This document shows positions 1,080 to 63,272 of a DNA stretch of 64,000 nt, in pieces (the first letter of the stretch is position 1; every line of letters begins with the position of its first letter). Both the position numbers and the translations under genes were made by a program. The stretch lies in the NCBI RefSeq assembly GCF_026571515.1, contig NW_026861111.1, forward strand, positions 1 to 64,000, read 5' to 3'. The DNA is from Ruditapes philippinarum (Eukaryota). The notes under the pieces were generated by a model. That model did no database searches and was not told where the DNA came from. It saw only the letters and a list, made by a program, of their open reading frames with translations.

Positions 1080-2076
1080 GTATGTACATATAGCTGCACT
1101 TCTATATCAAACAATAAGTGTAAGTAAATATTAATGAATTTATAAATCATCCAAGAAGTGTGAGTAAATATTGATGTACTTCTATGTCAAGCCAGAACGG
1201 TAAGTTAATATCGCTGTTGTTATAAAGCAAGAATTGTAAGAAAATATTGATTTCCTTCCATATCAAGCAAGAAGGGTAAATATATATATTTATATATATA
1301 TGTCCTGTATCAAGCAAGAAGGTTAGCAATTATTCATCTATATCAATCAAGAAGTGTAAATAAATATGAATGTCCTTCTATATCAAGCAAGAAGGTTAGT
1401 AAATATTTATGTTCTTCTATATCAAGCAAGAATAGTAATTATATAAAGATGTGCTTCTTGATCAAGCAAGAAGGATGAGCTAATATTGACGCACTTTGAT
1501 ATGATGGAAAAAGGGTAAGTAAATTTTAATGTACTTCTATATCAAACAAGTAGTGTAAGTTAATATTGATGTACATCTACATCAAGCAAGAAGGGTCAGT
1601 AGATATTGATGTTCTTTCATATGAGGCAAGAAGTTTAAGTAAATATTGGCTAATTTATGACACACAAAACAGGTAAGTTAATAATGTTGTATTTCTATAT
1701 CAAACAGAAAGGGTGAGTTAATATTGATGTACTTCGATATCAAGCAAAAGGGAAAGTAAATTTTAATGTACTTCTATATCAAATAAGTAATGTGAGTAAA
1801 TATTGATGTACATCTACATCAAGCAAGAAGGGTCAGTAGATATTGATGTACTTCCATATCAAACAAGAAGTGTAAGTAAATATTGTCTTATTTATGTCAA
1901 ACAGAAAGGGTGAGTAAATATTGATATCTTCGATATCAAGCAAAAGGGTAAGTAGATTTTAATGAACTTCTATATCAAACAAATAATTTGAGTAAATATT
2001 GATGTACATCTACATCAAGTAAGAAGGGTCAGTAAATACTGTTGTAATTCTATATCAAACAAGAAGGGTGAGAAAA
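1060..2076 (+). repeat. ~40-bp minisatellite (~25 copies) built from the exon 3' end plus splice donor
   Basis: Consensus about cttctatatcaagcaagaagg-gtaagt-aaatattgatgta. The first unit is the real junction tatcaaaaacgcaagaagg|gtatgtacatatagctgcac. About two more degenerate units follow the mariner insertion (3425-3500). Confidence 0.9.
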
Positions 2077-2078
2077 TA

Positions 2079-3422
2079 CGAGGGGTGTCCCAGAATTACG
2101 TGGACTTTTGCTGTAACTTAAAAACTACTGAAAATAAAAACAAACAAAATTAACATGAACAAAATGCAACTTTATTGCATTAGTACAAAAAATTTCAAAG
2201 TTGTCCGTCAACTGGATCAGTGTCTGTGGGCAGGGTAATGAGACAAGGGGTAGCGGGTGCGGGGCAGTCCATTCCGACGTTACGCCGTCATTCCGGTGGC
2301 GTCGCTAGTTGTTAATAAATGCGTGGCGTCGAACGCACAAGATCTCGCGGTAACACCTGACAAATAGACAATTTATCTACTAAGTAAGCGATATTGTACA
2401 TATACTTAATCTGCAAATAATAATAATAATAATAATATAATAATAATAATAAAGCATACTATTAACTTTTGTTACGATAATAGTGTTAAAGACGACGGTG
2501 ATAATGCTGACGCCGTATCATTTTTATTATTCTTTTTATTATTATTATTATCATTATTATTGTGGAGTTTATTTTATAAGCAAAGACAATGTGCGTTAAC
2601 AAGGGAAATAACCTATCATGCGCACTGCTTACTATAGCAGTTTGAGTTCACTTTCTTAAAAGCTGGAGCGGATAAATTGCGTTTAAAATAATAAATTGTG
2701 ATTAGCTTAATTTTCATCAAAGTCATTTTTTTAAACACAAAATTATTGCTTACCCTTCAATAGCACTCAGCAGTGTAACGCCTGTCCCGATCTATGACGT
2801 CCTTGACTTCCTTAATTGACGCCGCAGTCAACGTTGACTTTCTCCCACGACCCTTGCCGTCTTCAATGTCCTCCCGGCCGTCTCGAAAACGCTTATGCCA
2901 CTTGAAAACGAGTGATCGACAAACAGGAGGTCTCACTTTTGCAGTCTCCAACATTTCTTGCGTCTGTGTTGGCGTCTTCCAAAGATTAACACAAAACTTG
3001 ATGATAGTCCTATGTTCCGCGTAATCCGTTGACGTCATTTTTTGTTAAATATCCAAGAGAAACGCTTATCAGTTGTCCGCTGGTAAACAATAACGGAAAC
3101 AGCTATGACATCAAAATTTCAAACGAACGTTCATATGACGTCACTGCATATGCTTACGACGTCGCGTCATTTTTACGTATAAAAACGCAAGATATACGAA
3201 AGTAAAGACAACTTATTAATACAAAATATTGGACTGTCCCGTCCTGCGCATACTGCGTTACTATAGCGACGTAAAATATAGAGAAGCAATGTTAGAAATT
3301 AAAAAATAATGAACATATTCATTAAAGATATGTTAAAGGTATTGTGTACAAATTTGCTAAAAAATGCATTAAAAATAAAAAAAGTTATAGCAAAAGTCCA
3401 TGTAATTCTGGGACACCCCTCG
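2079..3422 (-). mobile_element. Non-autonomous mariner (Tc1/mariner) deletion derivative
   Basis: ~41-bp TIRs (cgaggggtgtcccagaattac[g/a]tggacttttgct[g/a]taactt) with TA target duplications at 2077-78 and 3423-24. Inserted into the minisatellite. Confidence 0.92.
2757..3038 (-). pseudogene. Mariner transposase N-terminal HTH region only (no DDD catalytic domain)
   Basis: R-x-IIKFCVNL-x-KTPTQT...VFKWHKRFRDGREDIED-x-x-GRGRK is the typical mariner DNA-binding region. The ORF stops at 93 aa. Confidence 0.85.
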
Positions 3423-5508
3423 TATTGATCTTTTTTCTATAAATAGCAAGGAGAGTCAGAAAATATTTGTATTTTTAAATCAAGCAAAAAGAGTACTTAA
3501 AACACACTTTGGATGTTTCAATACGAATATTACTTTTCATAACAATGAATTTCCTAAACACATAACATTCTAAAAAGAACAACAAGTTAAGGGAAAGGGG
3601 TGTTGATTTTTTGATAATATCAAACTTTTTATCCGACCTTCTGTTCAGAAATGATCATTTGTTCTGCATTATAATCAACAAAAACAAGAAGCATTGTGAG
3701 AAAATGGGAACATAAAAAAACTAATAATTCTTATAGTCGATATTTAAATATTTTGCTAAATTTTAATACATTTCACAATATTCATCCGAAATAAAGATTT
3801 CCTTGAAATTGAAGCCCCTTTGGTATGGTTTAAAAACTTGTAAGTGTAATAAAGCAATACATGCCCGATAGAACTTGCAACACAATTATGTAATGTGTCA
3901 ATTTTTTTTGTCCATCTGTATTGAATTTCATTTACGAGTTATATCATGAGTCTATTATACATTGTGAGTACAATACTGACTTCTATTAGACAAGTACACA
4001 GCTGTCAAAACTATATTGGACGAGGCGCTGGCCGAGTCTGGTAGAGGTGTTGCTGCTGTGTACGCTTCTATGTAGGCCGGGGTACATCACGTTGTGCACA
4101 AAACGAAATCATATATAAATTATCAATGCGGACGGCACTTGCAACTAACTTTTGGCTTGCGTTCCTGATGCATGCTATTGTTGTTGTCCTTTTTTGGGTG
4201 CATTTCTATTGGTTGTCTTTTACGAAAATCATTAATTTTATTTTGTCAACAATAAGCAGGACTCCATTTAAATTATTTATGCGGACGTCTTTTCAAGTTT
4301 GGCATTATATAGTTTCAATATGTTCCATTTATTTATATCAGTGCAAATACAAAATATCAATCAATAGGTAGTTTATTTTTTTACGAAAAGGTTTGTTAAT
4401 GAAAATACGAATGACCAACATATAACAACTGTCGAAGATCGGACTCATTAAAGCTCAAAATGCGCGCTCAGCTGCCATAATGAAATCTCAGATGTCTAAC
4501 GTGTGTTATTCCTAATATGAGGGCGCCAAATACCAATTTGGACAAAGTAATTTAGATAAAAAGTTCTGAAACCAACCAAATTCGACGTAATTTCATCATG
4601 CAATATGTAAAACCGTACTGTAGTTTCATTTTTACAATGATTGAGGCTGCAATTACACTTAAAGCGTGGCCACGTAATGACCGTCGCGTGGCCACGTGTA
4701 CCTTTCGCGTGCGCATGTTAAAGCTTTTGGGTCATCACGTTATGCTGTAGCTTGGGAACGTATAAAACGTCGCACGCGCAGGTTTTGCTATGTCTCTAAG
4801 TGCCACCGCACCTCTGACAAGGTTAATTTACCATATGTCACACGATAGTCACCTCTGATTCATACAGAGTAGTTGGAATTTATTTGCGGAGAACAGGTCG
4901 AGAATCACTTCCTACCGCTATGAAAACTTTTACAGGTAGTGTTTAAGTAAAAATTAAATAATATATCCCGACAAAACATTTTATTAAAGATACCCCATTG
5001 TGTCTTTTATATAATTTTTCGAGATAAATTTTCAATTTGATTAAAAGTTTATTTGCAAACTTTCAGAAAATTTGTCACTCTGTTTTTTTCAAAGCTGATC
5101 TATGTAAAAGCTTTAATTTCTATGTACTAAAATTTTTGAACCTTAGTAGTCTTAATGATAAAATCACTGCTGGGGATATGCGATTTAGACACGACATCAA
5201 CAAATAATTGCTGCCGATATAGATCTGATATAAAGCTAAATTGTGACTGATTTGTTTCCGTACTGATTTTCAGCACGTCGCATTTTGTAATGAATACGTC
5301 ACATGTTAAAATATTACTTAAGACCGATGGGGTTATTTCAATGAAAAGAATCCCGATTTCAACTTCAAGAATTCACGATTTCAACACAGGGCATTCTTCA
5401 TCTTTTACTTTCTCCGTATAATGAAAATATAATATATCATTTAATTAAAAGGGATACATGTTTCTTCCCCTTTTGATTGCGAATGCCCATGTAAATGAAC
5501 ACGTCTGC

Positions 5509-9100: not shown

Positions 9101-11653
9101 TCAAAGCTAACGGTATTTATAAAGCAGTTCATTTCGGAATTTGTATACAGGTGAGCGACTTAACTTACGATTGTCTATTTTATGTCCGTAAAGTATACAG
9201 ATAACACATATACAGTTACTGTACGTTTAGGATAATTATTTAGTGACGCGGTTGTCAAGTCCATATTACGGTGTAAAAACAGTTATCATATTGTGTTTAT
9301 TATCATAAGGCACGCATGCTTGCTGTATAAATTTAAATATCGGCAAAATAATCAACTGGTAGGTAAGGTTTTCAGTTAATCTTATTTTTGAATATCAATG
9401 CAAGACTAGTTCGGATTGTACTTTTTCCACGAAAATAATCTCTGTAAATAAAAAATCAAATACGAATATAATATTTTTTTGACGTAAAGAAATGTCAAGT
9501 GGTGTTTTAATTTCTATTAACTTCTCATTTTAATATTTTTTTCAAAAGTTATATCTAGAAAGTTGGTACAACCTTATACTGAATACTAAACAGAATAAAT
9601 ACATGTACACAAATTGTTTCAACTATAGTTCAGTTGGCACAAAATACTCGTGCACTGCACTGCACGGCACAAGTACTATGACTACTGCATACTAAACACT
9701 ACACAGGATAAAAAATATTATAACTTAAATTATTTAGATAATATTGTCACGATCTAGGCACGTGACGTTGCTGTCATCACTGTATAATTGGCTATAACAC
9801 CTTGCGCTGTATGTCACAATCTGGGCACGTGAAGTTGCTAACTTAGTCGAATAAATACTAAGTCTTGATTATAAGACTTATTAAATTATGTCACAATTTG
9901 GACATATGTCTCTGCTGCTGCTACGTTGATTATATTAAACTATTCCTATTATTTATAGTAAAACATCACATACAAAGTCGTTGTTAAGTTTATAACTTTT
10001 AATAAAGCACTTAGCTCAACTATTATAGATCAATAGTAAAACATGAAATATTTTTAACGCATTAATATCAATCACAGATTGATAATGTAATCATGCAATT
10101 CACTCAAGAGAAACTTAATTGATAATGTAATCTTGCTATTCACACAAGAGAAATTCACTCTTTAATTATTATATATTACCAAATGTACTTATTATTTAAT
10201 ATAACCAGTTGCTTTGCATCAGAAATATCACTTAAAACTTGTGTTAACAATTCTTAATAATTGCTGCCTTTAAACTTAAATAATTCACAACGCTTTTCTA
10301 ATTGTCAACATAAATCTTTATCACTAACAATTATAAAATATGTATAAATATTTGTTTAAAAATAAACAGCTTATCAAAACTCTGATGTGAATAAAAATGT
10401 CTATTTAGATAAAATAGCCCGCTTACTTTTAGTGTAAACTTAATTTTATTAAAGCTAACGAGAATTTAACCGAGCGTAGCTTTACGTTACAAATTCTAAC
10501 TTATGACTCCCTGAAATGCGGCAATCCCAGCCTATTTACACTAAATCTGCAACCGCAACCAAAATGCACCCCAAAAACTGACTGATCACCCCAGAAAATG
10601 GTTAAAGGTTAATGCACCCCAAAAATAGTCTGAGTCTGCTTGCAACCAAAGTGCACCCAAAGAAATGGTTGATCACCCGTAAAATTGGCTGCAGTCTTAA
10701 AGAATTTCCAGAGACTAATTTACTAGAAATAATGGCCATCTCGGTAAAGTCTACACTACTGGTTTAAAGAAGAAACTATACAACAGTGTCATGTACATTA
10801 GGCAGGTTTAAATTATCGATTTTCTACAGTACATATGTTCAACTGCACTTAGTTACCATAAACAAATACCACAATGCTTTGCAAACAACATGGCGTCAAT
10901 GTAAAAATAGTTAAATGTGTTTACAACAATTACTAACATTTCGAGTTAAGTACAATAATTTAAACCAAGTTATATGGTGCTAAGGAAACATAAACTGTTC
11001 ATTTCACTATTGCAATAAAACTTCGGCACAATGTTAAAGGATTTACGCAAGGAAGTAAACAAACAGTTTAAAATATACATGTCCGGACAATTCGGATACA
11101 GTTCAGCTGAAATCAGGGATCAACAAGGACCTCCACAAGCATGTACAGGCAAACCTAGTTAATAAGCTTCTTGTATGAGTGTATGTTTTGTCATTCTAAA
11201 GCGAAATATGCCTCATCTTGTGTTTTATAGCTGGTTATACCACAAAACATGTTTGTTAAGAATTAATGAAATGCACCTATATGCCAACGTGTCAGACTCA
11301 AGGTAAGTGAAATAATATTAACTTGTAAAACAATATATCATAACTACCCTAATTCTCCAATTCATTTGCATCTTTTGTAAAATTGGAAAAAAGGGGGAAA
11401 ATTAGACAACTTGTGAAGCCCAAGCTCGTAAAAGAATTTCAGATGTAATGCATTCCATGGCAAACTTTGCCATCAGGACATTTAAGATATTAATTTTATC
11501 TTGTATTGTATTGACTTTTGAAAAAAACCTGTTCTACCTATTCAGACAAAGATTGTTAACTTTTGTGTACACTAAAAATGCAACGTGACTTTCACTTTAT
11601 CATAGGGACACAGTATCATTTCATATAAAAAAAACACCATAATAAATTGATAT

Positions 11654-14600
11654 TATAGAACTGTCGCGATCGATTATAAAGGGATTAACAATACAAACAA
11701 TCGACTTACCTTCCACGTCTTGATCGTAACCAAGCTAGGAATTGCCTTGTTCTTCTTAATTATTTTCTACGCTAATATGGCGCCCAACTGTCAAACCTAA
11801 CGCACTACATGTAATTCTGGTTGGCTCGGAACATTCGTTAACTTCCGTCAACTCCTGTAAACATTACCATACGGTTCCTCCCGTCTTATTCTTTAGATGG
11901 GGTCTGTGGCTTTAGCAAGTTAACCAAGCAGTAACGCCTCTCTAATCCAAGGGCAGACAAGAGATTCATACCGGTTCTGGTACGAAAGACCATGATGCCA
12001 GAGGGCTGGACAACATGGCCTATTTGACTGAACCATACCAATTTCAGCCAAGCCTCAAACCAAGATACTCAATGGCTGTCAGATACTTTAGGAAAGCTAT
12101 GGAGTTTGTCCTCCTCAGCTGACAAGCTGAGTATGGCTTTCAGATTGTCTTCCTGATGTCTTTCTAGCATGTAAACCAAAGACATTAGACAGCGCCACTG
12201 CAACAAAACGGTCACAGCATTACCTTTAACCTTTGGAATGAGACCTTTGGGCAATGGCACCCTAAGAACCTCACAGAACTTTTTCACTGCTCTCCTGAGA
12301 TTCCTGGGAACACCAGCACCCTCCAGGTAAGTTACGAGGTCAAACATTGTGCTATTAAACCCAAATAACCACCTGCCACCAGCTTCAAAGCACTAATCCT
12401 TCTTTTCGTAATGCTTTCACCTGTCAAACACATCCAGAATATGCCAGTAAGATGGGCCTCCCAAGCATGTCTCTGGGTAAGATCCTCATAACATCCAGAC
12501 GCTGGGCACCTAGATTCTTGCTGGCCACACGGAATATCCTCTTAAATCTGTGCCAGCAACGGAACATCTACATGATCAGGAATGGCCCTGATATCAGATG
12601 TTTGGTATCTTTCGCAACCTTCACCAACCTTCTCTTCCCCTCCACTGAAGAGTTGACCTTCAGAGAGAGAACATGCTCAACGACCTTATTGGCAAGTACC
12701 GGCTGGCCATCTGCATCTGATTGGTTTTCATGAAAATCAATCCCGTAGATGACAGAAACCCTAGTACTCTGCTGACCACATAATCCGTAATCTGTAGACT
12801 CCAATGGTTTGGTTACCAACGGTACCACCTCATCTACATCTGTGAAGAAATTGACCCAATTGTTATGGGCTTTTTCACATCCATCACAAGGCAACCGATC
12901 CAGCCGAGCTCAAGCAATTCCACCTCGACATGTCCCATTTTGCAGTGGTATTTTTGACATTGCGTTAGCATTGGAATGCTCGCTACCCACACGATGTCTC
13001 TTCCAGCCATCTCCCCAGTTGCCCTTGTGGCTCCCTGAAATTCAGCAACCACAACAGACTTGAATGGTCAATCCTGACCACAAATTGTCTTCGTAGCAAG
13101 TAGTGTCGAAACTGTTTGGCGAACCGAGCTACTACTAGCAGCTCTTTCCTTGTCATACAATAACAATAATGCTCCTTGTTAAGAGCACAGCTACAAAATG
13201 CAATAACTTTATCTTGGCCATCTTGCACCTGCAAGAGTTCCGCTCCAATCGTATGATTGGAGGCGACGGTATTAAAGATAAATTCGTCATGTTGATTTGG
13301 CAACGCTAACACCAGAGGCTGCGTCAACAAGCACTTCAGTGTTCTGAATGCTTCTGTTTGTTCCTCGCCACAGACAAATTTGGCTTTGCCTCTGACGGCA
13401 TACAATGAGACCGCGTTCCTAGATAAGTCCTTTACAAACACTCTATGATTGTTAACCAACCCCATAAACCACTCTACCTGAATCGCACTGTTGGGAAGGA
13501 ACAAGCCAATCCTTCACCACTGCTATGTCATGTTCTGAAATAGCAATGCTGTCCTTTACGACATTAGAACTTTTCTTCAACAAAAGGATTAATTCCTTCG
13601 GCTTAAGCTTGAGCTTATTCCTCCGAAATCTTGAAAGGGCCTCCCGCAAGTTTGAGAGATTGTCCTCAAAATTACGTCCAATCACGATGATGTCATCTAA
13701 AAATGCCAGGACTGTCTTCCACGTCAAGAATCTGAGGACTAAGACCATTTCCCTGGCAACCACACAACCAAAGCCTTCTCTGATGTTCAACTGGATGTAG
13801 GCAGAGTTGGCATCCAATTTTGAAAACCAAACACTGCCACCAAATGTGTCAATGCAATCATCGACTAAAGGCAATGGATACACGTCTTTGACTGAAACCG
13901 TATTCATCTTCCTATAATCTATGCAATAATGCACAGAGCCGTTATGTTTTCAAATCAAACTTGAACAGACGCCCAATCGGATGTTGCATTTTTCCACCAG
14001 CCTTAGGCATTTCCTGAGGCTTGGCCTCTTCTTCCCATGCAAAGCACGCTGCCTTTTTCCTCGGTATCTGTGTCATATTCCTCATCAGTGAAGACACCAA
14101 GGTCAAGTTCACCCTTGATGAAGACATCATGAATTGCGCTATCTGAATTCGTTGTCTTTCATCAAGGTCCCCACAAGAGGTTTTGTACACCTCTTGTAAG
14201 TGTGGTGGCATTTCACCAATCACACTTGATGATATTTCTTCAAACACTTGGCCAAAGATGTTTTAACATCACAATCATTGATAACCTCACTGATAGCATA
14301 TTCCCTTCCTATCTTTGTTCAACTCCTGGCAAGCCAAAAGCTATCTGATGGATTGATCAGATTCAACTCAGGGGTTAAAATGCCTTCATGTAACACCCAG
14401 GGAGCCTTTTGGTTCACTGGTTCTTCGATGTATCTGGGCAGGGGAGAGTGTAGTCTACATCGAACTTTTGCAACAGAGTGTGGGGGAGGGGGCAACCTGT
14501 CTCTTGGATACTGTAACTGTAACCTTAGATACTAAGGGACTATCTGATGAATGGACATCTAGGGAGATGCGCATACAATCAAGGTAGAGCTCTGCCTTGC

Positions 14601-16862
14601 TCATGTCTAGCACAGATTGCCGGGGTCACAAGCAAATCAAAACCTAAGAGCATCTGTTGCTTAATGGGGGCAAAATACATATTGACCTTGTACCACTGGT
14701 GACCAACCTTTAACTGAACCGGACCGGCTACAAAGGCTGCCATAGACAATTCCCTGCCAGCCGTTTGCAGCTTGACATCCCTTAGCTTGGAGGGCTTGTG
14801 CTTCAGTGAATTGTAGACATAATCAGAAATGATGGTCACCTGGGCAGCTGTAACTCGTAGCTCGTACATTCCCTACTTGAACCCTCATGGTAAACTGGGA
14901 AAAGAATTGACCTGACATACAACAATAGGGTCTGGTTCGACTCCCCCATGCTTACTTGGCTGACGTGTGGAGCCAACCGAGATTTTTTAACAGTACAGGT
15001 CTTGTCTGCAGATAGGGACGGAAAATGACCTACTTTTTCACCGTCCCTTTCTAGTTTAACGACTTCTGGCTGTCGTTAAGCTTATGGCAATTTCTTTTAA
15101 AATGCTCAGAATTCGCCACAATTGTAGCACTCGGCTGGTCTGAGTGGTTGGGACAATTCTGACAAAAAAGGGTTTACTTAAATCATCAGTTGACATAGGC
15201 TCTGCCTGCTTCCGTGATGGCTGGGACGCAACAGAAAAACCCTTTTCGGGTTTCTTCTGGTCACTGTACATGGCTGCATAAACCTGCTGGTACTGGCGTA
15301 CCATTTGTATGTTTGCATGCACGGACTCCGGTTGTTGCATGGAAACATGGTGACCCGCTTCTTTGTCAACCATACCCTAACAGAATATGTTCACCGTTTT
15401 GTTAGTGACAGACTCCTCTGGCAGCTTCTTCAAAGCTCTGTAACCAAGAGTGAGCACTCGGTCAACCCATTCATCTAAGTACCCGATTGTCTCTTGTGCT
15501 GCATTCTGAAACCATACCTGTGCAGCAGCTGGTAACTCATGTTGGCCAAATTGCTTTCCAGCCATGTAGGTAAGATGACCTTCGTGTTCATGGATAAGCG
15601 CATAATACTCGAGCACTTTACCATCTAAACACCAGACGAGGCAGTGAACTTGTTCTTCATTAGTCTACTCGCCTTGTTGGACATAGCGAGTGAACTTTTA
15701 AATGAGCGGTCCCCAAGTATTCATACCATCGTATGATAAGTGTTCGGGACAGGCAGATATCAGGCTATGAACCCTAGAACGCCTATGGGCAGATGGTGCC
15801 CTATCAAACATATTGTCATCCATTCAATCACTATCCACTACCTGGTCAAAACGTATGGTACGTTAAGGTGTGGGATATAATGGTTGTGGTAAGGTTTTCG
15901 GGAGTATGGAGTTTGACATTTCGGCAGTAAAATCCGTAGGAGTCATCAACTTCAGATTTTCATTTGGAAAAATCTTAACATATATTGTGAGGGTGCAAAC
16001 AGATGACTGTTGTTGCTGCTTGTGAACGGCCAAGATATCTGTTCACCACTTTCACTATCGCTTGCTGCAATGAGCGCCTAGGCTAGGCTTGGACCCACAT
16101 AAGGTATTGCCTGTAACCCTTCCTCAGATGCAAAGTTGATGGCAACCAAGGGTCGTTGCACAACCTCTGCTTCCTGAGAAAGTATCTATGATTCTCCCTT
16201 TATATTGATTTTCTCCACGGCAACGGAACAGATACCGAGAAATTTTCAAATTAAAATATAAACTCAATATCTATCTTTTCTCCATTTATATGACAAAAGG
16301 GCTAGATAGAGTTTATCAAAATATTACAGTAACTGTACCGGTGGCAGCAGAACGAAAAGGAAATCCAAAAAATAAACAAATTCCAAAGAATGTGGTCCTT
16401 CCAGGCAACGTCTAACCTAAGCGGAATTCCTGCTTATTACGACGATTACGTAAAAAATTCTGGTTTAAATCGTTCAAGCAGATTAGCCCACTATAAACGA
16501 AAGCAAGAATTCAGGTTGCTTTTGTTCTATGAGTGCAGAATTAATTGAGGGCAAATTCGTAATCAATCGATGAATGGCGCTTTCGTTGCGTCTATCTTTC
16601 GTAACGGAATTCGTAACAAATTACTGCTGCCACCAATAGAGAACTGTCGTGATCGATTATTAAGGTATTTACAATATTAACAATCGACTTACCTTCCAAG
16701 TCTGGATCTTGGCCAAGCTAGGAATTGCCTAATTCTTCTTAGTTATTTTTGACGCTAATATACGCCTAACTGTAAAATCTAACACACTAGTTCCAGTTGG
16801 CTCGGAACATTCCGTTAACTTAATTCCGTCAACTCCTGTAACCAGTACCATACGGTACTACA
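11654..16862 (-). mobile_element. Decayed Ty3/Gypsy LTR retrotransposon inside the NLR intron, antisense to the host gene
   Basis: Two ~220-bp diverged LTRs (about 11654-11875 and 16637-16862, the right one ending ...gtactaca). PBS tggtggcagcag on the - strand at 16635-16624. Fragmented gag, protease, RT (CIDYRKMN..KDVYPLP, FSKLDANSAY, AFLDDII) and RNase H (GAELLQVQDG..VIAF, KELL, DHSSL..L, GQLGRWLE) ORFs. Confidence 0.92.
12568..15616 (-). pseudogene. Gypsy gag-pol remnants with frameshifts and stops
   Basis: ORF pieces 15377-15616 and 15056-15373 (gag-like), 14579-14869 (protease-like), 13452-13934 (RT), 12983-13504 (RNase H), 12568-12894 (post-RNase H). Confidence 0.88.
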
Positions 16863-17114
16863 CTATATTACGTCTGTTTCATAGTGCAAATTGTTCAAAA
16901 TCAAAATGTCGGCATTATTGCGTTTATACCACTAGCATAATTTATTATTATCTCTCGCTTTTTATACGTCCGTTTGAAATAATAACATTGAAACAAAGCT
17001 TTATACTAACTGTAATTTGTATTTGATGAGAAATATTTATACAGTTTTCATTCATCATCTTTTTTTAATCGATCTAATTTTTGAGTAACAACATGTTTTT
17101 ATTATATTTTTAAG

Positions 17115-19291
17115 AGCTGAAAGATGGTTTGATAACATTCTACAAAAGAAGACACAGCACAATTTTCCTGTCGCCTCTTTTTGAACAGAAAGACACTCCC
17201 TTGGCTTCTTTTTATATCAGACCGGATCTGATCTCAATAGACTCAACACCGACGAAAAATGAGGACAGATTACCAGTAAAATCATTGTCGGAGATTTTTA
17301 AAACTGAAAATAAGCAAAATCTAGAAATATATGTAATCGCTGATGCTGGAATCGGAAAAACTGCATTTTCAAAGTATCTAGCTACCGTTTGGTGTCAAGC
17401 TCATTGCCAAGACGAAGACATGAATAAATTATTGTTAAAAAATGATATAGAATGTATGAATGAATTTGATTTCTTATTCCTTGTCTTATTGCGAGATTCA
17501 GACGATTTATGCTCTATAGATGAGCTCATATTTGAAAAGATTGTTTCAAATTTGGGTCTGAAAGAAACCTTTTCCAAAGATGCCCTGCTTGAAATTTTAT
17601 ATAATGAGAAATGCATCGTTATACTTGATGGACTGGATGAATGGACTCACCCCGACAAGAAAAGTGACAAGAAATGTTACAGATCGCCAAAATCGATCCC
17701 CCACAAGAATGTACGAGAAAAGTGTACAATACTGACTACCACACGACCATGGAAATTAGGTGTTTTGGGTCTAGACTCGTGTCAATTAGGAAAAAGGGTA
17801 GAACTTACAAAACTAAGTTACGATTCAGCAGTTACACTTACAGAAAGGGTATTACAAAGATGGAAGTCTTCCCGGAATAAGGATGCCTTACAAAGTGACG
17901 TAACACAGTTCATAAAAACAATCAGTAGGAGACACAACGCCGAGCTTGCTTTTGTACCTCTGCTTTTAATATATATAACTTGTTTATGGTGTAATGGTGT
18001 TCAAATAGGAAGTTCAAAATGTGATATCTTTATAAATATAGTCGAGCTTCTTTTATCGAGAACGATTATGGTCCACGGGGAACTTCAACAATCGCGGGAA
18101 CTTCCGTCCAGTGACATCCCAAAATGCTTTGCTGAATATGATAACTGTAGGAAATACTACCCACTCCTGATGCATTTAGGGAAATTAGCTTATTATACGT
18201 TATTTAGTGAAACAAAAGACAATGCGCTAGTTTTTGATAGATCAGTTACTGACGAATACCTCACATTAGACCAGATGGAATTCACACTTCACTCAGGAAT
18301 GTTGTCAGAAGGAACATCTACATCATCAAGAAAAATGTTTAGTAAAGTATCGTTTTCCCACAAAACAGTTCAGGAATTCTTCGCAGCCATATTTATAAGT
18401 TCTCACAGTGACGATCAGAAAATTGTTCTAGAAAAATTCAGAAATATTCAAGACATTCTGGACATGTCAAAAATGTATGAATTTATAATTGAAATGAATG
18501 CTGACTTGATGTATGCAATATCAAATGATTTGATGTCAGTCATAAATAAGGACCAGAAAACGCGCGACTATAGAACTAGGGCAGGTGGCGCGCACTGGTA
18601 CAATAATCCATTGCATAACATACAGGAAATGTTCATGTCCTGTTTACACGAAATGCCTGAAAGTGAAAATATCCAATTATGTTTACAAGATTTCTTCATT
18701 GACTACGACATAGTGAGCAGTAAGCAGTTACAACGTTTGTTAAAACAAAATAAAAACAACATAAAATCACTTTATATAGACATCAAATATTCTACCAGAA
18801 GTTTACCTGAAATTATAGATTTATTCTCTCTCACAGATCTCATTCATATACAGAAACTTGACTATCGTGGTGACGTGGGGACGGAGGCTGAGATAAATCA
18901 GATATTGTTTCCCAGTTTGCAGGCCGTATCTTTGCGGTATGGTAAATGGACAAATGGTGAAGAAAATCTGAGTCAAAATTTGTCACGAGTACAAAACTTA
19001 CAATATTTACATATTGACCAATTCAAGTTATCTCACAAAATACTGGAAACATTATTCAATTTTATCTGCGGTCAAAAATCAATGAAAGAGTTAACATTGG
19101 ACTGGTTAGACTGTAAAGAACATGGCCGCCGTCGTGATTGTGAGAGATGGAACTTGGACTTGTCTCAACATTCAACTCTATCAAAGTTACACTTGCAGGT
19201 GTTACCTGGGAGGCTACAATTAAATATATCAACACCACCATTAGTTAATGTTAAGTTATGGAGAATCAATCTAGATGAAAGTTCATTGTAA
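17115..19291 (+). CDS. NLR-like NACHT NTPase, large exon (NACHT-WH-HD2-LRR-like), ending at a premature stop
   Basis: Acceptor ttttaag|agctg gives (E)LKDGLITFYKRRH. Walker A IADAGIGKT, Walker B IVILDGLDEW, ILTTTRP, VPLLL, WH motif FSHKTVQEFFAA, and LxxLxL repeats (LQYLHID, MKELTLD, LSKLHLQ). Confidence 0.93.
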
Positions 19292-19562
19292 CTGTCACGT
19301 GACAAGTGTGAAGTTGAGGGAGATAGAGATATCTGCAGGAAGTTTACAGAACTTTATTACCGTGCTGGAAAATCTGCCGCAGTCAGTAACAGTAAAGATA
19401 CACGACATTTAACCGAAAACAGAATATGAAATTGTTACAGAAAATATTCGGTGTTCACAAACTTTTCATGTGATACAAGACAACGACTACTCCTGGCGGC
19501 AGGTGATCGAGTTCAAAACAAAATCAAAGTACAAAAGGCACTGCAGTTGGGATGTACTTTAG
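19292..19562 (+). pseudogene. Disrupted C-terminal continuation of the NLR reading frame
   Basis: After TAA the frame reads LSRD. A shifted frame then reads VKLREIEISAGSLQNFITVLENLPQSVTVKIHDI*PKTEYEIVTENIRCSQTFHVIQDNDYSWRQVIEFKTKSK..., which is coding-like, with a second stop. Confidence 0.7.
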
Positions 19563-44032: not shown

Positions 44033-44340
44033 TACGAAGGACCGCTGGGGGCATTTCAACTTCATGAATTCCAGATTTCAGCTTCATGAATTCTCGATTT
44101 CAACTTCAAGAATTCACGATTTCAACTTCATGAATTCACGATTTCATCTTCACGAATTCACGATACCAAATTCAAATCGTGAATTCGTGAACTTAGTGTC
44201 GTGAATTCATGAAGCTGAATCGTGAATTCGTGAATTCCGTATTTTGAAAACGGGAATTCACGAAGTTTAAATTGTGAATTCATGAAGATGAAATCGGGAA
44301 TTCATGAAATTTAAATGGCCCTACCGGTCTTACTTACATA
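44033..44340. mobile_element. Palindromic MITE made of ~22-bp repeats in inverted arms
   Basis: atttcaacttcatgaattcacg about 5 times forward, then reverse-complement copies. Ends are ggaccgctgggggcattt / aaatggccctaccggtc. A related fragment lies at about 5320-5395. Confidence 0.7.
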
Positions 44341-46593: not shown

Positions 46594-46719
46594 CTGGCCA
46601 CCACTCGAATCTGTCTATGTCTGCTTGTGAATTATTTACCCATCTCCAGTCACCTTCATCTCCATCATCAGATATTCCTATCCAGACACCATGTGCTCTG
46701 ATTCTTCTTAACAAGTTAT
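46594..46719 (-). CDS. C-type lectin domain exon 2
   Basis: ttttgacag|at...ccag|gtaaga; (D)NLLRRIRAHGVWIGISDDGDEGDWRWVNNSQADIDRFEWWP; WIG and EG-x-WRW motifs; 126 nt. Confidence 0.93.
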
Positions 46720-46721
46720 CT

Positions 46722-47150
46722 GTCAAAATATTTGACATTTAATGAATTGCTAGTAATATTTGACATTTACTGTAATTGCTGTTAATATTTTACATTTAAT
46801 GTAATTGCTAGTAATCATTGACATTTTATAAAATCGCTACTTATTATTTGACATTTAATTTAATTGCTAGTAAATATTTCACATTTAATGGAATTGCCAG
46901 TTAATATTTGACATTTAAAGTAATTGCTAGTAAAATATTAATCATCTTTTGTAATTGCTAGTAAATATTTGGCATTTAATGAAATTGCTAGTACATATTT
47001 GACATTTAATGTAATTTCTTGCAAATATTTGACATTTAATGCAATTGCTAGTAAATAATTCAATGTAATTGCTAGTACATATTTGACATTTAGTGTGATT
47101 GCTATTAAGTATTTGACATTTAATGTAATTGCTAGTACACATTTGACATT
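46722..47150 (-). repeat. ~30-bp minisatellite (~14 copies) abutting the lectin exon acceptor
   Basis: + strand unit tttgacatttaatgtaattgctagtaaata. On the - strand each unit reads aaatgtcaaatatttactag|caattac, in register with the real aaatgtcaaatattttgacag|ataac. Confidence 0.88.
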
Positions 47151-50541: not shown

Positions 50542-50883
50542 AAATGTATTCAAACGTATACACAAACGTATACAAGTAAATGTGGAGATAAAAAATCACT
50601 TCAAATCAGATTCACAACCAACAATATCTAGTGTTAGTCTAAGAACACACATGGAACGAGTCCTTCCAAGGAATCCTATACATGTATTTCATTTTAATCG
50701 CATTACACTTCCTGACTTTTCTCTATTATCACTTTACTTCATTTTGTATGGGATTTTCATGCAGTCATTCATCCTTGAGAAATTCTTTCCGTCATGGGCC
50801 ATATGGATTCTGGTGTGTGCAAAACAAACAATGTGTATCTATGAATGGAATGTCACAAAACTGGCTCAAAATATTTATCAAGT

Positions 50884-53800
50884 TGTGGTGCGGGGTTTAT
50901 TAAGTTACAACGGGGGTGGAGGGTGAGGTTGATTTCCGTGTTCATGCTATTCTTTAAATAAAACACTTCTGTGCCGTAGGTTTCAATGTCCATAATATTT
51001 TTTAACAAATAATTGTGTGTCGTATTTTCTCCGTAGTATAATAATATTCCGTAAACTTGTAATTATCAGTTGTCTATTCATCTTTGGTATTAATTTAAAA
51101 ATCCTTTTGGCATCATAAACACACAACTCAGTAAGTCCTTTTCTTGTTGTTGTTTTTTTTAATTTCCTTTTTTCATATTTACATCAACAGTTCTGACCGG
51201 TCAAAATAACAAATATATATTTACATGTACATTAAAATGCACCGCAGAAAACTGCGGACTTAAACCGTCACATGTTAAGTGTCTGACTGCCTGAACCCTC
51301 TATATAAAAAAAATTCTTCTCTTTTATTAATACAAATATAATTGTTACAAAGGTTTCAATAATTAACCAATGAAAAAATGACCTTAGACGGGAAAATATT
51401 AACCAATGAAAATACATTTTATCAAATATGAAATTATTGATTTGACCAATAAAAATGGTTCGATTAAAACTGATTAACACGTTAGATGTCAAAAGTCAGC
51501 GGCCTGTTAATTCCTTTCTTTAAGTTAAACAGATAATCAGATAAGAAAACTTCAAATAAATGTCGTAGATAAAATTAATGATAATTTATATATTTCTGAA
51601 TTTCAATAATTTAAAAACTTTTTATAACATAAACAAGAAAATATAATAATTTTACGAAAAGTATTTTGAAAGAATCAAATGGAAAAAATACAGCATAACA
51701 TCACCTCCTCCTCTATTTTACTTTATTCCATAAAGTGAGAGGTTCCTTATATATATTAAGACAATAAAAGTGATTACAACAAGTACAATGTATTATGTGC
51801 TTATGTAGAGGGCTATATTAGAGTGGAGTTGATCTCAACACATTGTTCTGTTTTATTAATCAAAGTTACTTTCTTAGTGGAATACCACAAACAATATGTT
51901 TAATGTGCACAGGTTATCCTGAGTTAAATTTAGTGGAAAGCCACAATGTTATCTCTTGGAAATCCAAAATCTAACTTTAATTCAACACAGCATTTGTTAA
52001 ATTCATTGTGCTATTTTCTTTTTGTGAACTCACAAAAATCCTATTTGCTTACTACATTATAGAATCAACTTTAACATAGCTATACCTCAGCATGTAATAA
52101 TTAAGACATAATATATATTAAGCTATTTTGTAATTTTAAAATACCAGTATAAAAACCAGACATTATAGTCTATAAGTATTAATATCACAAAGCAAATTAT
52201 ATTAACAAAGTACATGCTAATTTATAGAAAGTTTACAAGTTTCATCAACATCTAATGATTAGGTCTTTAAAAATATATATTTCATCTTTTCATGATTATA
52301 CAATAATTCAACATCAATTCGTCAACGAATGCCTTATATAGACGATACTTCATAATACTTTCATTTTTTTTTCTACTAAACAATTTTAAGTAGCATCACC
52401 CATCATCAAACATAATGCAATTATCAACACATGCAACTCTTACTAGATACCGAAGTGGCACATAAAATCATGATGAAGAAAATCATTCCGACCAATGACA
52501 CTAAAACACAAGCAAACCACTACTTTAGACACCAACCGAACCAAATACATGTATCGTCGACGCATACACCATTCAGTAACCATAGATAAGACTTAAAAAA
52601 AAGAATTCACACACACTCGATCCACTAACAGAAATTTACATACAAAATCTTATATATAATGATGATGTCCAAAATAAGCAGATGCAAAGTTTGAACCCCA
52701 AAGCCCAGAAATGACACTACAATCATATTTTTCAAAAGAAAATAAATCATACGTCCACATTATCAATAAAATAAAGTCAAATGTTAGGCAAACATACCTT
52801 TAAGACAATACTGATATTAAGTATCTGAGAATTAAAAACATGTGAATTGATAAAACAAAATGTTCTGTAATTTATATGTTTTCCTTTGACCGCTTCATCT
52901 CTCCATACATTTCGTCTGATAATATCCGGTTAAGTCTTCAACTTTAAATTATCCATTTCCGCATTCGTTTATTGAATTTTTAGTTCCTATATTTCGTCTT
53001 GTTTTTTTTTTAATTAAAAATTTGTCATAACCACTTTACAAAAGTTTCTTCTACTTGTCTTGCATTCATGTTCCCTTAAAGCTTAAATTAATTATTACTG
53101 CAAATGTTCCTGGTTCCTAAACGTCCTTGGAATGACGATAATTTTGTCTATCACTTTGTATCGTTTCGTTTCGTGGGGAATAATTAAAAAAATACAGCAT
53201 AACATCTCTTCACTCGCTTGGCTGCTGATTCGAGGTACCGAAATACTCGCCTCTCTTCTTCACCATGTGTGGTGCGGGGTTTATTAAGTTACAACGGGGG
53301 TGGAGGGTGAGGTTGATTTCCGTGTTCATGCTATTCTTTAAATAAAACACTTCTGTGCCGTAGGTTTCAATGTCCATAATATTTTTTAACAAATAATTGT
53401 GTGTCGTATTTTCTCCGTAGTATAATAATATTCCGTAAACTTGTAATTATCAGTTGTCTATTCATCTTTGGTATTAATTTAAAAATCCTTTTGGCATCAT
53501 AAACACACAACTCAGTAAGTCCTTTTCTTGTTGTTGTTTTTTTTAATTTCCTTTTTTCATATTTACATCAACAGTTCTGACCGGTCAAAATAACAAATAT
53601 ATATTTACATGTACATTAAAATGCACCGCAGAAAACTGCGGACTTAAACCGTCACATGTTAAGTGTCTGACTGCCTGAACCTCTATATAAAAAAAATTCT
53701 TCTCTTTTATTAATACAAAATAAATTGTTACAAAGGTTTCAATAATTAACCAATGAAAAAATGACCTTAGACGGGAAAATATTAACCATTGAAAATACAT

Positions 53801-54083
53801 TTTATCAATTATGAAATTATCGATTTGACAAATCAAAATGGATTTATTTAGACTGATTAACACGTTAGATGTCAAAAGACAGCGGCCTGTTAATTCCTTT
53901 CTTTAAGTTAAACAGATAATCAGATAAGAAAACTTCAAATAAATGTCGTAGATAAAATTAATGATAATTTATATATTTCTGAATTTCAATAATTTAAAAA
54001 CTTTTTATAACATAAACAAGAAAATATAATAATTTTACGAAAAGTATTTTGAAAGAATCAAATGGAAAAAATACAGCATAACA
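50884..54083 (-). mobile_element. Non-autonomous (non-coding) LTR retroelement
   Basis: ~817-bp direct repeats at 50884-51700 and 53268-54083 with TG...CA ends and a 4-bp TSD AAGT. On the - strand: PBS-like tggtgaagaagagagg (53265-53250) and PPT agaggaggaggtga just before the 3' LTR. The 1.57-kb interior has no ORF. Confidence 0.9.
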
Positions 54084-54837: not shown

Positions 54838-54895
54838 ATGAAATATACACGTTCACTTATATTTTATGCTCTCATTTTGCAGACTTTGTGTTCAG
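54838..54895 (+). CDS. LDLR/LRP-like gene, signal-peptide exon
   Basis: ATG...MKYTRSLIFYALILQTLCS followed by cag|gtaagt; phase 1, joins in frame to 57600. Confidence 0.75.
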
Positions 54896-57346: not shown

Positions 57347-57469
57347 TTAAGGTGACATGAGCTGGCATTTTCTTGTAAATTTTGTTAAGATACATTTATA
57401 AACAAAATGATTTTGAAAGAAAATGACAGGCACTATTTACCTGGAATATGGTAATTGTTCATCTTGATA

Positions 57470-57603
57470 ACATTTCAACTTAATTATGATAACTTTTCAA
57501 CTTAATTATGATTACTTTTCAACTTGAGTATGAATACTTTTCAACTTGAAATGATAACTGTTCAACTTGAATATTATAACTGTTAAACATAATTTTCAGA
57601 AAC
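57470..57603 (+). repeat. ~22-bp tandem repeat (~6 copies) ending on the EGF-exon acceptor
   Basis: ttttcaacttaattatgataac-type units grade into tgttaaacataattttcag|aaac. Confidence 0.7.
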
Positions 57604-57752
57604 ATCTGACATCCGGAACAAAGCATGTAAAGTCGATACAAAAGGAGTCCCTTCATGTAGCCAGCTGTGTATAAATGGCAGGGGAGGTTACTTGTGTTCT
57701 TGTTACCGTGGATATGTGTTAGCAGATGACAACCGGACATGTTTGGTTACAG
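57600..57752 (+). CDS. LDLR/LRP-like gene, EGF-domain exon
   Basis: ttttcag|aa...acag|gtatat; (E)TSDIRNKACKVDTKGVPSCSQLCINGRGGYLCSCYRGYVLADDNRTCLVT. Six-Cys EGF of the LDLR-family type; phase 1-1. Confidence 0.92.
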
Positions 57753-59340
57753 GTATATCTCACATTGTTTCATGTAAGAAGAAATTGTTTTGATTAATTT
57801 GTTTGTACAGACTAGTAACCTGCTGATGGTTTTAAAGGAACTAAAAAAAAAAGCTTCCATTTTCATACTGGCACCAGATGGGGCTAAAAAATTGCTGGAA
57901 TCACTTTGTCATGTCCGTTGGTCTGTCCGTCTGCACCACTGAAGTAGGTAAAGGGCCCATTTAACTAAACACAGAACAAAAGAAAACAAAAGAGTTCATT
58001 CTGTATCAAAACTGAATAAGGGAATCAATGGCCCTTTATTAAACAAAATAAATAGTCCCCAAATTAATTTTCCCTTTAAGGGGAGACTTTTTGCCCCATA
58101 ATTAGCTGCTTAAAATCCTGTTTTCCCCTTAAAAGGGTTTTTCTTCAACTTTTTTTTCTTTTAATAAAAATATGGGTAAGAAATTTAAATGTTACAAAAT
58201 AATTCAATGCCCCACATATAGGAAGTTTTTTTGACTGAATTTATTTTAAACAGTATATTTTAAAAAATCATTTTAAATTTAAGTTAAAAGAAGGAAAAAA
58301 AAGTAAACCCCTTCTATTATTTAAAATTATCAAAAGGTTTGTAAAACTGGGAAAATATATAAAAAGTTTCTAACCCTTGTTAAAATTTATTCAGATTGGT
58401 CATAAAAAAACAGTTAAAAATTGTTCATACGTGGGGGATTTTAAAAACTGGGGTTGATAAATGTCAACATATTTTTTTTTCCTAATTTTTTTCCAAAAGG
58501 ACTTTTTAAATTTTCCTTTTTTTATAATTTAAAAATAAAAAATTTTTTATACCCTTATCAAAAAATTTACCCTTTTGAGCTTTAGAAAAAAGTTTTTTCC
58601 TAAGCCAAAAATTTTTTAAAAAATAGAGAATGTGTATAAAAGGAAAACCCTTTATTATCTTGTAACACAAAATTTAATGAAAAAATTGTGACTTTTTAAA
58701 TTGTTTTTACATGAATTTATTATTGACAAATATTTGCAAAAGTCAAGGTCACTAAAGCTATAAAATTCCAGAAAATTTCCCCGACATAAAATTTTTTCCC
58801 TACATGATAGAGGGAAATTTTTTTATTACTTAATAGAATTTTTTTTACCCGGGAAATTTTAGCCCCGGGAGGGGGGTTTAAACGTCGGGTAAGGGGACGA
58901 TCCCATCCAAAAACCAAAAGAGTCCCCGCACTTTTTCATTCAACCCAAATCAAACCACAATCTTTTTGGGTTTTCCCAAAAACCCATTTTAAAAATATGA
59001 TGATATTATTTGTCGTTTCTGGGCGTGTTTACACATGTGCCCAATTTTCATCACAATTATTGCTAAGGATAAATGCTGACTTGGTCCAAAACCAGGCATG
59101 TTAACTTGTCAAAATAATGTATACTGCATCTAACATAATCTTTATTAAAAACAACACGCAAGTTCTTCTTTACCAGAATGATTTTATACAAAACACGTGT
59201 TTGTAACTGAGGATAAATGTGCCATTCAATATAAATATCTAAGTGATTTTAATTGTTTTATAAGTTGAATTAAAGTAACCTTGAAATAACTTCATGGTGA
59301 ACCATAATTATTTGCTTTAATACTGGACAATTTTTTACTG

Positions 59341-59378
<38 letters not shown>

Positions 59379-60160
59379 ACAAATGATGCATGAAAGTAAA
59401 ACAGAAACTATTGCAGTGGAGTCATACTCTAATGATAAATGTAAAACCTACATATATAAATGTGTATTTCTGTTAGTGTGTAATCAATTTAAGTGATATT
59501 TAACAATTAGGAACCCTGGCAGGAAGCGACCACTTCCTTGGAGTTTTATATCATTAAAATGTCTCTTAATAAAACTAAATTCTTAGTGTTTAACCTCATT
59601 TGACCCTGCTGGAATGCCTGTCTATAGAAAGTTTGGGTTTGTCTTAATATATTTACTACATGAAATTACAAGCAAAAAACAATACTGCCATAAAAAACGA
59701 AAACCCACTTGAATTTTAGAAGGAACGACTGGGCTACCCTTTTTGCTTAAATATTTTAACCAAGTCACACGTTCTTTTAGCCAGGGTTTTTTCTACTTTT
59801 AGTTTCCTTTATGCTCCAAATTTTTTTCTAAACTATTAAGGTTTTGATTTAAAAGAATAAGTGAAAACCCAAATTTTTCCCCCTTCCTTTATTATTAAAA
59901 ATTAAAAAAAGGCATTTTTTTTCCCAAAAAAAAGGAAAACATGATTTTATTTGGGCGGCCAAAAAAATGTTTTAATGGGAAAATTTAATATTTAAATTTT
60001 AAGGGGGTTATGTTTTTTTTCTGATAAAAAATTTTGTTTATTATTTTTTTGTAAAAGGAAATGAAAACCCGGGTAAATTTTTGGGGAACCAAAACAAGAC
60101 CCGTTAAAGGGGTACTATACTGAAAAAGAGGATATTGACACATTGACAAATCTTTTCCAG

Positions 60161-60182
60161 ATAGTACATGTTACGGCACTAG
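60161..60182 (+). CDS. Putative microexon (consensus 21 nt, DSHVTAL) of the LRP-like gene
   Basis: Good acceptor tcttttccag| and donor ctag|gtaa. As assembled it has 22 nt, one more than the array consensus, and lies next to a low-quality region. Confidence 0.5.
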
Positions 60183-61360
60183 GTAATGATTGTCAGGTAG
60201 TCATGTTAACGGCACTAGGTAAGTGATGTTGTCAGGTAGTCATGTCACGGCACTAGCTAAGTTATATTGTCAGAAAGTCGTGTTTTACACCACTAGGTAA
60301 GTGATATTGTCAGAAAGTCATGTTACAGCACTAGGTAAGTGATGTTGTCAGGTAGTCCATGTCACGGCACTAGCTAAGTTATATTGTCAGATAGTCATGT
60401 TACTGTACTAGGTAAGTGATATTGTCAGATAGTCATGTTACTGTACTAGGTAAGTGATATTGTCAGATAGTCATGTTACTGTACTAGGTAAGTGATATTG
60501 TCAGATAGTCATGTTACTGTACTAGGTAAGTGATATTGTCAGATAGTCATGTTACTGTACTAGGTAAGTGATATTGTCAGATAGTCATGTTACTGTACTA
60601 GGTAAGTGATATTGTCAGATAGTCATGTTACTGTACTAGGTAAGTGATATTGTCAGGTTGTCCTGTTACTGTACTAGGTAAGTGATATTGTCAGGATAGT
60701 CATGTTACTGTACTAGGTAAGTGATATTGTCAGATAGTCATGTTACTGTACTAGGTAAGTGATGTTGTCAGATAGTCATGTTACTGTACTAGGTAAGTGA
60801 TATTGTCAGATAGTCATGTTACTGTACTAGGTAAGTGATATTGTCAGATAGTCATGTTACTGTACTAGGTAAGTGATATTGTCAGATAGTCATGTTACTG
60901 TACTAGGTAAGTGATGTTGTCAGATAGTCATGTTACAGCACTAGTCAGGTAGTCATGTCAAACCACTAGGATAGTGATGTTGTCAGAAAGTCATGTCAAA
61001 CCACTAGGATAGTGATGTTGTCAGGTAGTCATGTCAAACCACTAGGATAGTGATGTTGTCAGAAAGTCATGTCAAACCACTAGGATAGTTATGTTGTCAG
61101 AAGGTCATGTCAAACCACTAGGGTAGTGATGGTGTCAGAAAGTCATGTCAAACCACTAGGGTAGTGATGTTGTCAGATAGTCATGTCACGGCACTAGGTA
61201 AGTGATGCTGTCAGATAGTCATGTCACGGCACTAGGGTAGTGATGTTGTCAGATAGTCATGTTACGGCACTAGGTAAGTTATATTGTCAAGTAGTCTTAT
61301 TAAAGTTCCATATTATTAGGAAAGTATATATTGTCATGTAGTCATATAACACCAATAGGA
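60161..61360 (+). repeat. 38-bp tandem array (~31 copies) of microexon + donor + acceptor-like sequence
   Basis: Unit atagtcatgttactgtactag-gtaagt-gatattgtcag; about 14 near-identical central copies, with variant copies at both ends. Confidence 0.95.
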
Positions 61361-61762
61361 TAGTTATATTATCTTAGCATTGAATAAAATGTCCTTAACA
61401 TAAGTGAAACTCCAAAAGTAGGATTGGTTGCACAATGTCCCCAGAAATTTGTTTTTTAATCTGACATAATTATGTTTCTTTAATAATGATATTTAAGCAC
61501 TGGTTTTGTTTTCCTTTTGTCTTTGTCTATGTAAAAATAAGGCAATTCTGTAGTAGAAAAAGTATTTTTATAAAGGCAACATTAATGCCTCAGAAATGAA
61601 TAGTTTTTTTCCTTCTTTAGAAACATTAAAAAAATCATTTAGAGCATGTAAAAGGTTTATCAATTTATAAAAGTAGCGCTGAGTGTGAAATATTCATAAT
61701 AAATAAGCAAAATGACACTAAATAAAGAATTATTTTAACTTCTACACAAAAACAATAAATAC

Positions 61763-61823
61763 CTGTAATTGAATTTATCGTCAAAGTTAACAGAGGCAAA
61801 AGATGGTCCAGGTAACTGGCCAT
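61763..61823 (-). CDS. Candidate signal-peptide exon on the antisense strand within an LRP intron
   Basis: ATG MASYLDHLLPLLTLTINSIT followed by acag|gtattt, phase 1, compatible with lectin exon 47885. Upstream pyrimidine tract and AG near 61872. Confidence 0.35.
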
Positions 61824-62031
61824 TATAGTATAGTTGTCTTGAGACCTTAACAGGACATCAAACATAGAGGGCTTGTCAGAAATAAAAACAACTAAACAAA
61901 AAAACATTTCTTTTGCATATTGGGCCTTTAAGTTAGTTTTACAATGTACATTATAGATACATTGTAAATAAATAAGGTAACTTTTTTAACTACATTGTAT
62001 ATTAACCAGTTGTAAATTTTTTTTGCTGCAG

Positions 62032-62145
62032 GTTTTGGTCCAGATGACATAATGTTGGTTGTATCTAGACATGGTAAAGCTGTATACAAAACAAAGTTAG
62101 ATGTTAAAAACCAAAAGGAAGAACCCGAAGTGTTAATAGATACAG
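62032..62145 (+). CDS. LDLR/LRP-like gene, first beta-propeller exon
   Basis: ttttgctgcag|gt...acag|gtaatt; (G)FGPDDIMLVVSRHGKAVYKTKLDVKNQKEEPEVLIDT; 114 nt, phase 1-1. Confidence 0.8.
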
Positions 62146-63094: not shown

Positions 63095-63272
63095 GTCTGA
63101 GGCATGTAACTCGGTGTGGGGGCAGTTTGACTGGGTCACGTCTAATATATATATCTGGTTGACAAAGAAGTCGGTCAAATTATCGTATGTTCATGGAAGG
63201 GAGAGATAACTGCTCAATTCTTGTAACAAATCTGGTACGCCCGTGCTCAGTTCTGGTGAACGTAAACTCAAG
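63095..63272 (+). CDS. LDLR/LRP-like gene, YWTD (LDLR class B) exon with apparent frameshifts
   Basis: atttcag|gt...caag|gtaagt. Removing small insertions, mostly in runs, gives GLRHVTGVAVDWVTSNIYLVDKEVGQIIVCSWKGDNCSILVTNLVRPCSVLVNVNSR (AVDW..NIY..D motif). Confidence 0.8.

Follow-up and report, generated by a model that had tools for sequence, protein, structure and literature searches.

The window analysed here is a 64,000-nucleotide, AT-rich stretch of Ruditapes philippinarum DNA with a GC content of 28–45% and repeat families that seem bivalve-like. It carries a plus-strand gene resembling those of cell-surface receptors, one intron of which (4,279 nt) contains a 38-bp minisatellite whose units resemble a very small exon together with its splice signals. 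The features of gene and array, from 5′ to 3′, are:

54838–54895, plus strand: predicted first coding exon (ATG, signal-peptide-like) with a phase-1 donor GTAAGT; identified from sequence, frame open with the next two exons
57600–57752, plus strand: EGF-domain exon, 153 nt, phase 1-1; Pfam FXa_inhibition/cEGF above cut-off, PDB match LRP2
60141–60160, plus strand: unique acceptor upstream of the array, a 7-pyrimidine run followed by CAG; identified from sequence
60161–60196, plus strand: unit 1, comprising the candidate seed microexon plus donor (22 nt + GTAATG as assembled); identified from sequence, use in mRNA putative
60197–61290, plus strand: units 2–30 of the 38-bp minisatellite, from the repeat parse, in blocks: mixed (2–6), TVL (7–20), truncated unit 21, donor-dead KPL (22–27) and TAL (28–30)
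61291–61375, plus strand: two decayed, donorless units, from the repeat parse
62032–62145, plus strand: 114-nt exon with phase 1 at either end, predicted to encode the initial strand of a YWTD-type propeller; open frame and likeness to family junctions
63095–63272, plus strand: exon with YWTD-repeat-like pieces over three frames; stops in all three frames as assembled

The exons at 54838–54895, 57600–57752 and 62032–62145 join in an open frame through phase 1 introns, and the two exons that flank the array are phase 1 at both ends, in agreement with the original prediction. At the level of sequence the EGF domain is certain (Pfam FXa_inhibition, E 7.6e-11; best PDB match LRP2). Calling the host gene LRP-like, as that prediction did, is a reasonable but thin reading of the sequence, the EGF exon being solid and the propeller represented by a weak, frameshifted match in exon 63095–63272. 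This exon would read as a YWTD repeat after about three frame switches, and a frameshift-aware comparison matched it weakly to six propeller proteins, five of them above the best of eight shuffles; Pfam gave no match on five pieces of the two downstream exons (62032–62145 and 63095–63272). The frame breaks in exon 63095–63272 reflect either indel errors of the assembly or a decaying gene or pseudogene. Upstream of this gene, near-identical direct copies of ~810 bp (50865–51675 and 53267–54081) lie around a 1.6-kb stretch and represent a tandem duplication, element ends or an assembly artefact.

Among proteins of up to 2000 aa there was no candidate orthologue of the EGF exon, and the orthologue search with exon 62032 returned 12 candidates, none scored. 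A phmmer search against 1.84 billion representatives gave, among the 150 proteins listed, nearly all multi-EGF proteins at 35–50% identity. Nine metagenome loci matched at 43–47% over the EGF part only, with no match to exon 62032 or to the 38-bp unit in these nine loci, and a piece of exon 63095 had one marginal metagenome match (E 0.039). A match to plant B-lectins in the ESM Atlas was dropped, recognition being below threshold. In EGF-propeller proteins retrieved for comparison, 7 of 12 parsable junctions have 6–8 residues between the final cysteine of the EGF domain and the first propeller strand, six of these seven being fish pro-EGF and thus not independent. The linker encoded here would have 9–10 residues on a direct join of 57752 to 62032 and 16–17 with one unit included. 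This argues mildly against a microexon that is always included, the seven extra residues apparently being unnecessary for the protein.

The array comprises 30 units in register on the plus strand (60161–61290), followed by the two decayed units to ~61375, and Tandem Repeats Finder places it at 60158–61296 with 92% matches. The consensus unit consists of 21 nt, GTAAGT and 11 nt ending in CAG, which bears out the 38-bp composition originally proposed, and the array starts at 60161, directly at the strong acceptor tcttttccag, as had also been noted. The count of ~31 complete, frame-preserving cassettes, by contrast, was too high. The exon-like part is 21 nt long and phase 1-1 in 25 of the 30 units, with the frame lost in units 1, 2, 4, 6 and 15; the donor GTAAGT occurs in 19 units and is lacking in 11; and the combination of AG, 21 nt and GTAAGT is complete, in frame and stop-free in 16. 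These 16 intact units encode DSHVTVL (n = 12), DSHVTAL (n = 2), ESHVTAL (n = 1) and GCPVTVL (n = 1), and the KPL-type units are donor-dead in 6 of 6 cases. The peptide variants and the in-register donor losses CTAAGT, GATAGT and GGTAGT agree with the earlier description, as does the finding that read-through past a unit donor meets a TGA two codons on. Unit 21 has only 25 nt, 13 nt being missing. The 22-nt length of unit 1 and its donor GTAATG are probably an assembly error, since exon 63095–63272 is interrupted by stops whichever frame is read and four of the first six units carry indels; alternatively, the host gene could be decaying. The DNA upstream of 60161 lies outside the repeat, its 38-mers matching the unit at only 15, 11 and 11 of 38 positions, so the strong acceptor exists once. 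Elsewhere in the window no further copies of the unit were found, the best matches being 11–15 nt with E above 1.

The exon-like anatomy of the array is far beyond chance. With the two donor arrays masked, 0.36% of 38-mers drawn at random from the window contain AG/GTAAGT, and 23 of 1,463 CAG are preceded by seven pyrimidines; the succession of seven pyrimidines and CAG, then G/GTAAGT within 51 nt, has no case on either strand of the window outside the two donor arrays. The rough joint chance of acceptor, donor, start register and frame is 2.5e-6, a post hoc product whose terms are assumed to be independent. An anatomy beyond chance indicates that the seed of the array was probably a genuine or former 21-nt exon, and the array at 60161 marks a probable unannotated 21-nt exon; the real splice anatomy of the unit, as originally recognised, is upheld. 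A plain VNTR devoid of exon history, in which the exon look of the seed is accidental and transcripts always run from 57752 to 62032, is unlikely, since acceptor, perfect donor, 21 nt and array start would have to coincide at that rough chance, the window has no second instance of the acceptor–donor pattern, and other arrays of the window are seeded at coding exons. It would nevertheless fit a direct-join linker near the family-typical length and for a unit 1 that is out of frame as assembled.

Whether the copies behave as exons is a separate matter from whether they descend from one. The acceptor of unit 1 has a pyrimidine run of 7, against runs of 2 at the four internal units scored and of 3–8 at seven other acceptors, and the last 20 nt of the acceptor contain 5–7 G in the four internal units against 1–3 at the seven others. 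The internal acceptors also have a donor 17 nt upstream. The weakest comparison acceptor, that of exon 1029, has 5 pyrimidines in 10 positions and a run of 3, which is near the level of the internal units; because this gap is small, the weak internal acceptors make use of the units less likely while leaving it possible. With that qualification, the sequence evidence says that copies 2–30 would not be exon-like in behaviour.

Variation between the units looks neutral. The comparison of columns and alleles covers those 24 units that are 38 nt long, the six indel units being left out, and finds variable columns at 9 of 21 exon positions, 3 of 6 donor positions and 4 of 11 other spacer positions. 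Allele classes divide into 3 synonymous and 8 non-synonymous, against 16 and 44 possible (p = 0.60, 24 units), a test that has little power with just 11 allele classes. Units of the TAL type border the array on either side, with the TVL and KPL blocks between them; the six donor-dead units were amplified as one block, and donor-dead and donor-live units amplify alike. This block arrangement of unit types is ordinary repeat turnover.

The original prediction had offered mutually exclusive microexons as one function of the array, and a working pool, in which several units are spliced in, one or more at once, to vary the EGF-propeller linker, is considered very unlikely. As in Dscam-type clusters (PMC5740500, in the part available), look-alike exons of equal length and phase stand in a row, 16 of 30 units are complete and stop-free, and weak acceptors occur at other exons of the window. 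Unlike members of such clusters, however, the 38-bp units show no selected diversification and do not each have an acceptor and donor of their own that are usable, 11 of 30 being without GTAAGT and the acceptors weak. The low-powered test of synonymous and non-synonymous classes shows no coding constraint, a single peptide is encoded by 12 of the 16 intact units and leaves almost no diversity, and the most divergent variants, of the KPL type, are donor-dead. Donor-to-branch point distances under about 50 nt are described as sterically excluding splicing (PMC5740500, PMC6692369, in the parts available). The gaps here are 17 nt between neighbours, 55 nt between units two apart and 93 nt between units three apart; the 17-nt spacer is far below ~50 nt, but at 93 nt or more mutual exclusion is not built in, so that steric exclusion would span near neighbours only. 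A precedent for such a pool, SmPoMuc of Schistosoma mansoni, likewise carries a complete, small in-frame exon (27 nt) repeated in tandem in the genome in variant types, and uses these tandem exons; its units, however, are ~1 kb long with full, spliceable introns and are present in transcripts, whereas the spacer here is 17 nt (PMC2576457, as far as the available text goes). The mutually exclusive pool thus goes unsupported. Equally doubtful is the idea of a whole-microexon minisatellite that serves as a splicing substrate, in which internal units at spacings of at least 93 nt would be spliced in, one by one or several together, and turnover would rewrite linker length and sequence between alleles.

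Ratchet points, also suggested originally, fare no better, and a ladder of recursive splicing at TAG/GTAAGT is highly improbable. The recursive-splice motif YAG/GTAAGT is indeed present, as TAG/GTAAGT, in 19 of 30 units, but AG/GT is the commonest exon end anyway. Recursive splice sites need a pyrimidine tract, and in the 21 nt before the motif no pyrimidine run exceeds 2. The host intron is moreover merely 4,279 nt long, and recursive splicing is described as rare and mainly a property of very long introns, from searches that are themselves length-biased (PMC13149111, in the part available).

The remaining functional reading is a leaky decoy array, in which unit 1 would be used, later donors would be used sometimes, in 38-nt steps, or skipping would rise with length, and copy number would tune output through NMD. 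By analogy with CBS and ABCA7 a length-dependent leak of this kind is possible, though it is rated quite unlikely. The units do supply GTAAGT in 19 of 30 cases with a stop upon read-through, but donor-dead and donor-live units were amplified without distinction. According to the available text of PMC1557585, the 37-bp VNTR in intron 7 of human F7 repeats a donor of which the first alone is used, the LMNB2 and PDGF minisatellites behave in the same way, and in CBS (intron 13) and 6-16 the two pseudo-donors that follow are used as well. These arrays resemble the present one in unit size, in the repeated donor and in a first element that overlaps exon sequence, which in the present array is putative; their units hold only the last few exon bases, whereas the 38-bp unit holds a whole exon-like 21 nt, and their length polymorphism and first-donor use have been measured, whereas the 38-bp array is known from the sequence of one assembly. 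The 25-bp VNTR in ABCA7 intron 18, as described in the available part of PMC5954066, also has a donor-bearing unit whose later donors cause a frameshift, and its allele length affects exon skipping: one unit is kept in about 2% of transcripts, and longer alleles skip the next exon more, but unit retention is unchanged with length. Its unit lacks exon sequence, and its length effect was demonstrated in alleles, whereas the present array is seen in one allele.

RNA reads were checked over 57596–60240, which covers the EGF exon, intron and units 1–2, in four of five raw same-species runs, about 4–12 in 100 reads of each being sampled. Depth on the EGF exon was 0 in 4 of 4 runs, and the region yielded no splice-junction reads in these samples, which therefore say nothing for or against splicing or silence of the gene. 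Of the 171 reads that aligned there, 169 fit only in part, nearly all at two dispersed-repeat spots, and one run had zero reads.

Arrays at splice sites are a recurrent feature of the window. A 40-bp array at 1063–2080 (plus strand) consists of ~25 decayed copies of the last bases of exon 1029–1079 and its donor; the reading frame stays open when this exon is joined to exon ~289–510 and to a large exon at 17115. Many of these copies carry GTAAGT or GTGAGT, a better consensus than the authentic GTATGT donor of the exon. A 30-bp array of 14 copies at 46726–47150 (minus strand) comes to within 5 nt of the acceptor of a 126-nt minus-strand exon (region 46595–47150) with C-type-lectin-like motifs, which we presume to indicate that family. 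A 22-bp minisatellite of 6 copies at 57465–57594 (plus strand) terminates 4 nt upstream of the EGF exon's acceptor; a short core is common to this repeat and the 22-bp repeats at 44053–44316 and 5335–5385. No exon was found beside the arrays at 37064 and 44053. Contact with a splice site is thus seen in 3 of the 5 other arrays of the window (period 15–45, at least 4 copies), for which the chance is about 1e-5 to 6e-4 for 15–60 assumed splice sites, a figure biased by the fact that exons were sought next to arrays. Growth at splice sites is thus a habit of arrays in this region, one that calls for no microexon function.

Several further observations concern the surroundings of the 40-bp array. 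Directly behind it lies a Mariner/Tc1-like transposon remnant with inverted ends (2082–3423), whose minus strand bears a transposase-like ORF (3044–2760). In the gene formed by 289–510, 1029–1079 and 17115–19400 (plus strand), the large exon has a P-loop-like motif and a leucine-rich tail and shows several frame changes as assembled; we take this exon to be of the NACHT type. An intron of this gene holds a decayed retrotransposon-like element at 11600–16900 (minus strand), with reverse-transcriptase/RNase-H-like pieces and flanked by similar terminal stretches at ~11660–11880 and 16640–16850.

The likely explanation is that the array is a tolerated 'mirage' minisatellite that grew from a genuine or former 21-nt exon and whose copies 2–30 are silent. 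Such mirages are described in amphioxus Adh3, troponin C, the globins BflGb6 and BflGb9, and PGBD5: units measure 10–160 bp, many copies keep AG/GT, array length is unstable, and splicing is normal (PMC3087553, PMC3902484, in the parts available). The 38-bp array would work like a mirage, being a tandem head-to-tail repeat with a unit of minisatellite size (38 bp × 30) inside an intron that keeps a splice signal in many, not all, copies. According to the same sources, amphioxus shares with the present case tandem copies of an exon–intron boundary, here a putative one, in an invertebrate intron, AG/GT likewise in many but not all copies, block-wise turnover, distinct boundary copies and several cases per genome. 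Two differences stand out: the amphioxus unit contains one boundary of a longer exon, whereas here it contains a whole putative exon of 21 nt with donor and AG, and normal splicing was demonstrated by RT-PCR in amphioxus, whereas the 38-bp array is known from sequence alone. In the literature searched, no description of splice-boundary minisatellites in bivalves and none of a whole-microexon repeat unit was found.

What the window shows directly is the anatomy of the array, its blocks of unit types, the losses of donors, variation that looks neutral, and arrays anchored at splice sites of other exons; the steps of duplication and splicing we infer as follows. A short phase 1-1 exon would have stood behind the unique acceptor at 60141–60160, and this exon and 17 intron nt would have been duplicated, perhaps aided by the CAG common to the acceptor and intron positions +15 to +17. 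Variant blocks would then have spread by slippage or unequal exchange, irrespective of donor or codon. The spliceosome would take the single strong acceptor with the 5′-most donor, joining 57752 to unit 1 and unit 1 to 62032, or would skip the array.

The seeded mirage is favoured by an anatomy beyond chance, by the confinement of the pyrimidine run to unit 1 (four internal units scored) and by variation that looks neutral (p = 0.60), with half of the donor columns variable and six donor-dead units in a block. The 40-bp array on the end and donor of exon 1029–1079 provides a precedent within the window. The TAL type at both ends resembles the boundary exclusion of amphioxus mirages (PMC3087553, in the part available), and according to the available texts mirages leave splicing undisturbed (PMC3087553, PMC3902484) and the first donor is used solely or mostly in F7, LMNB2, PDGF, CBS and 6-16 (PMC1557585). 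Against it, the assembled unit 1 breaks the frame and has a weaker donor, seven residues are apparently unneeded, the direct-join linker being closer to that of the family than one with a unit included, and weak real acceptors in this genome, as at exon 1029, suggest that the internal acceptors may be usable. Among the options first put forward, a neutral VNTR is the best fit; the array is real and non-random, but the earlier reading overstated it.

On the likeliest reading the array adds an ordinary case to the splice-boundary minisatellites; its small peculiarity is that the seed exon, being shorter than the unit, would have been copied whole. Together with the 38-bp array, four arrays adjoin splice sites within the 64-kb window, a number that points to such arrays being common in the genome. 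Should unit 1 be spliced, the locus would let first-donor scanning be tested naturally against 18 more donors of identical sequence, and should internal units be spliced, repeat instability would have a new path to variation in a protein.
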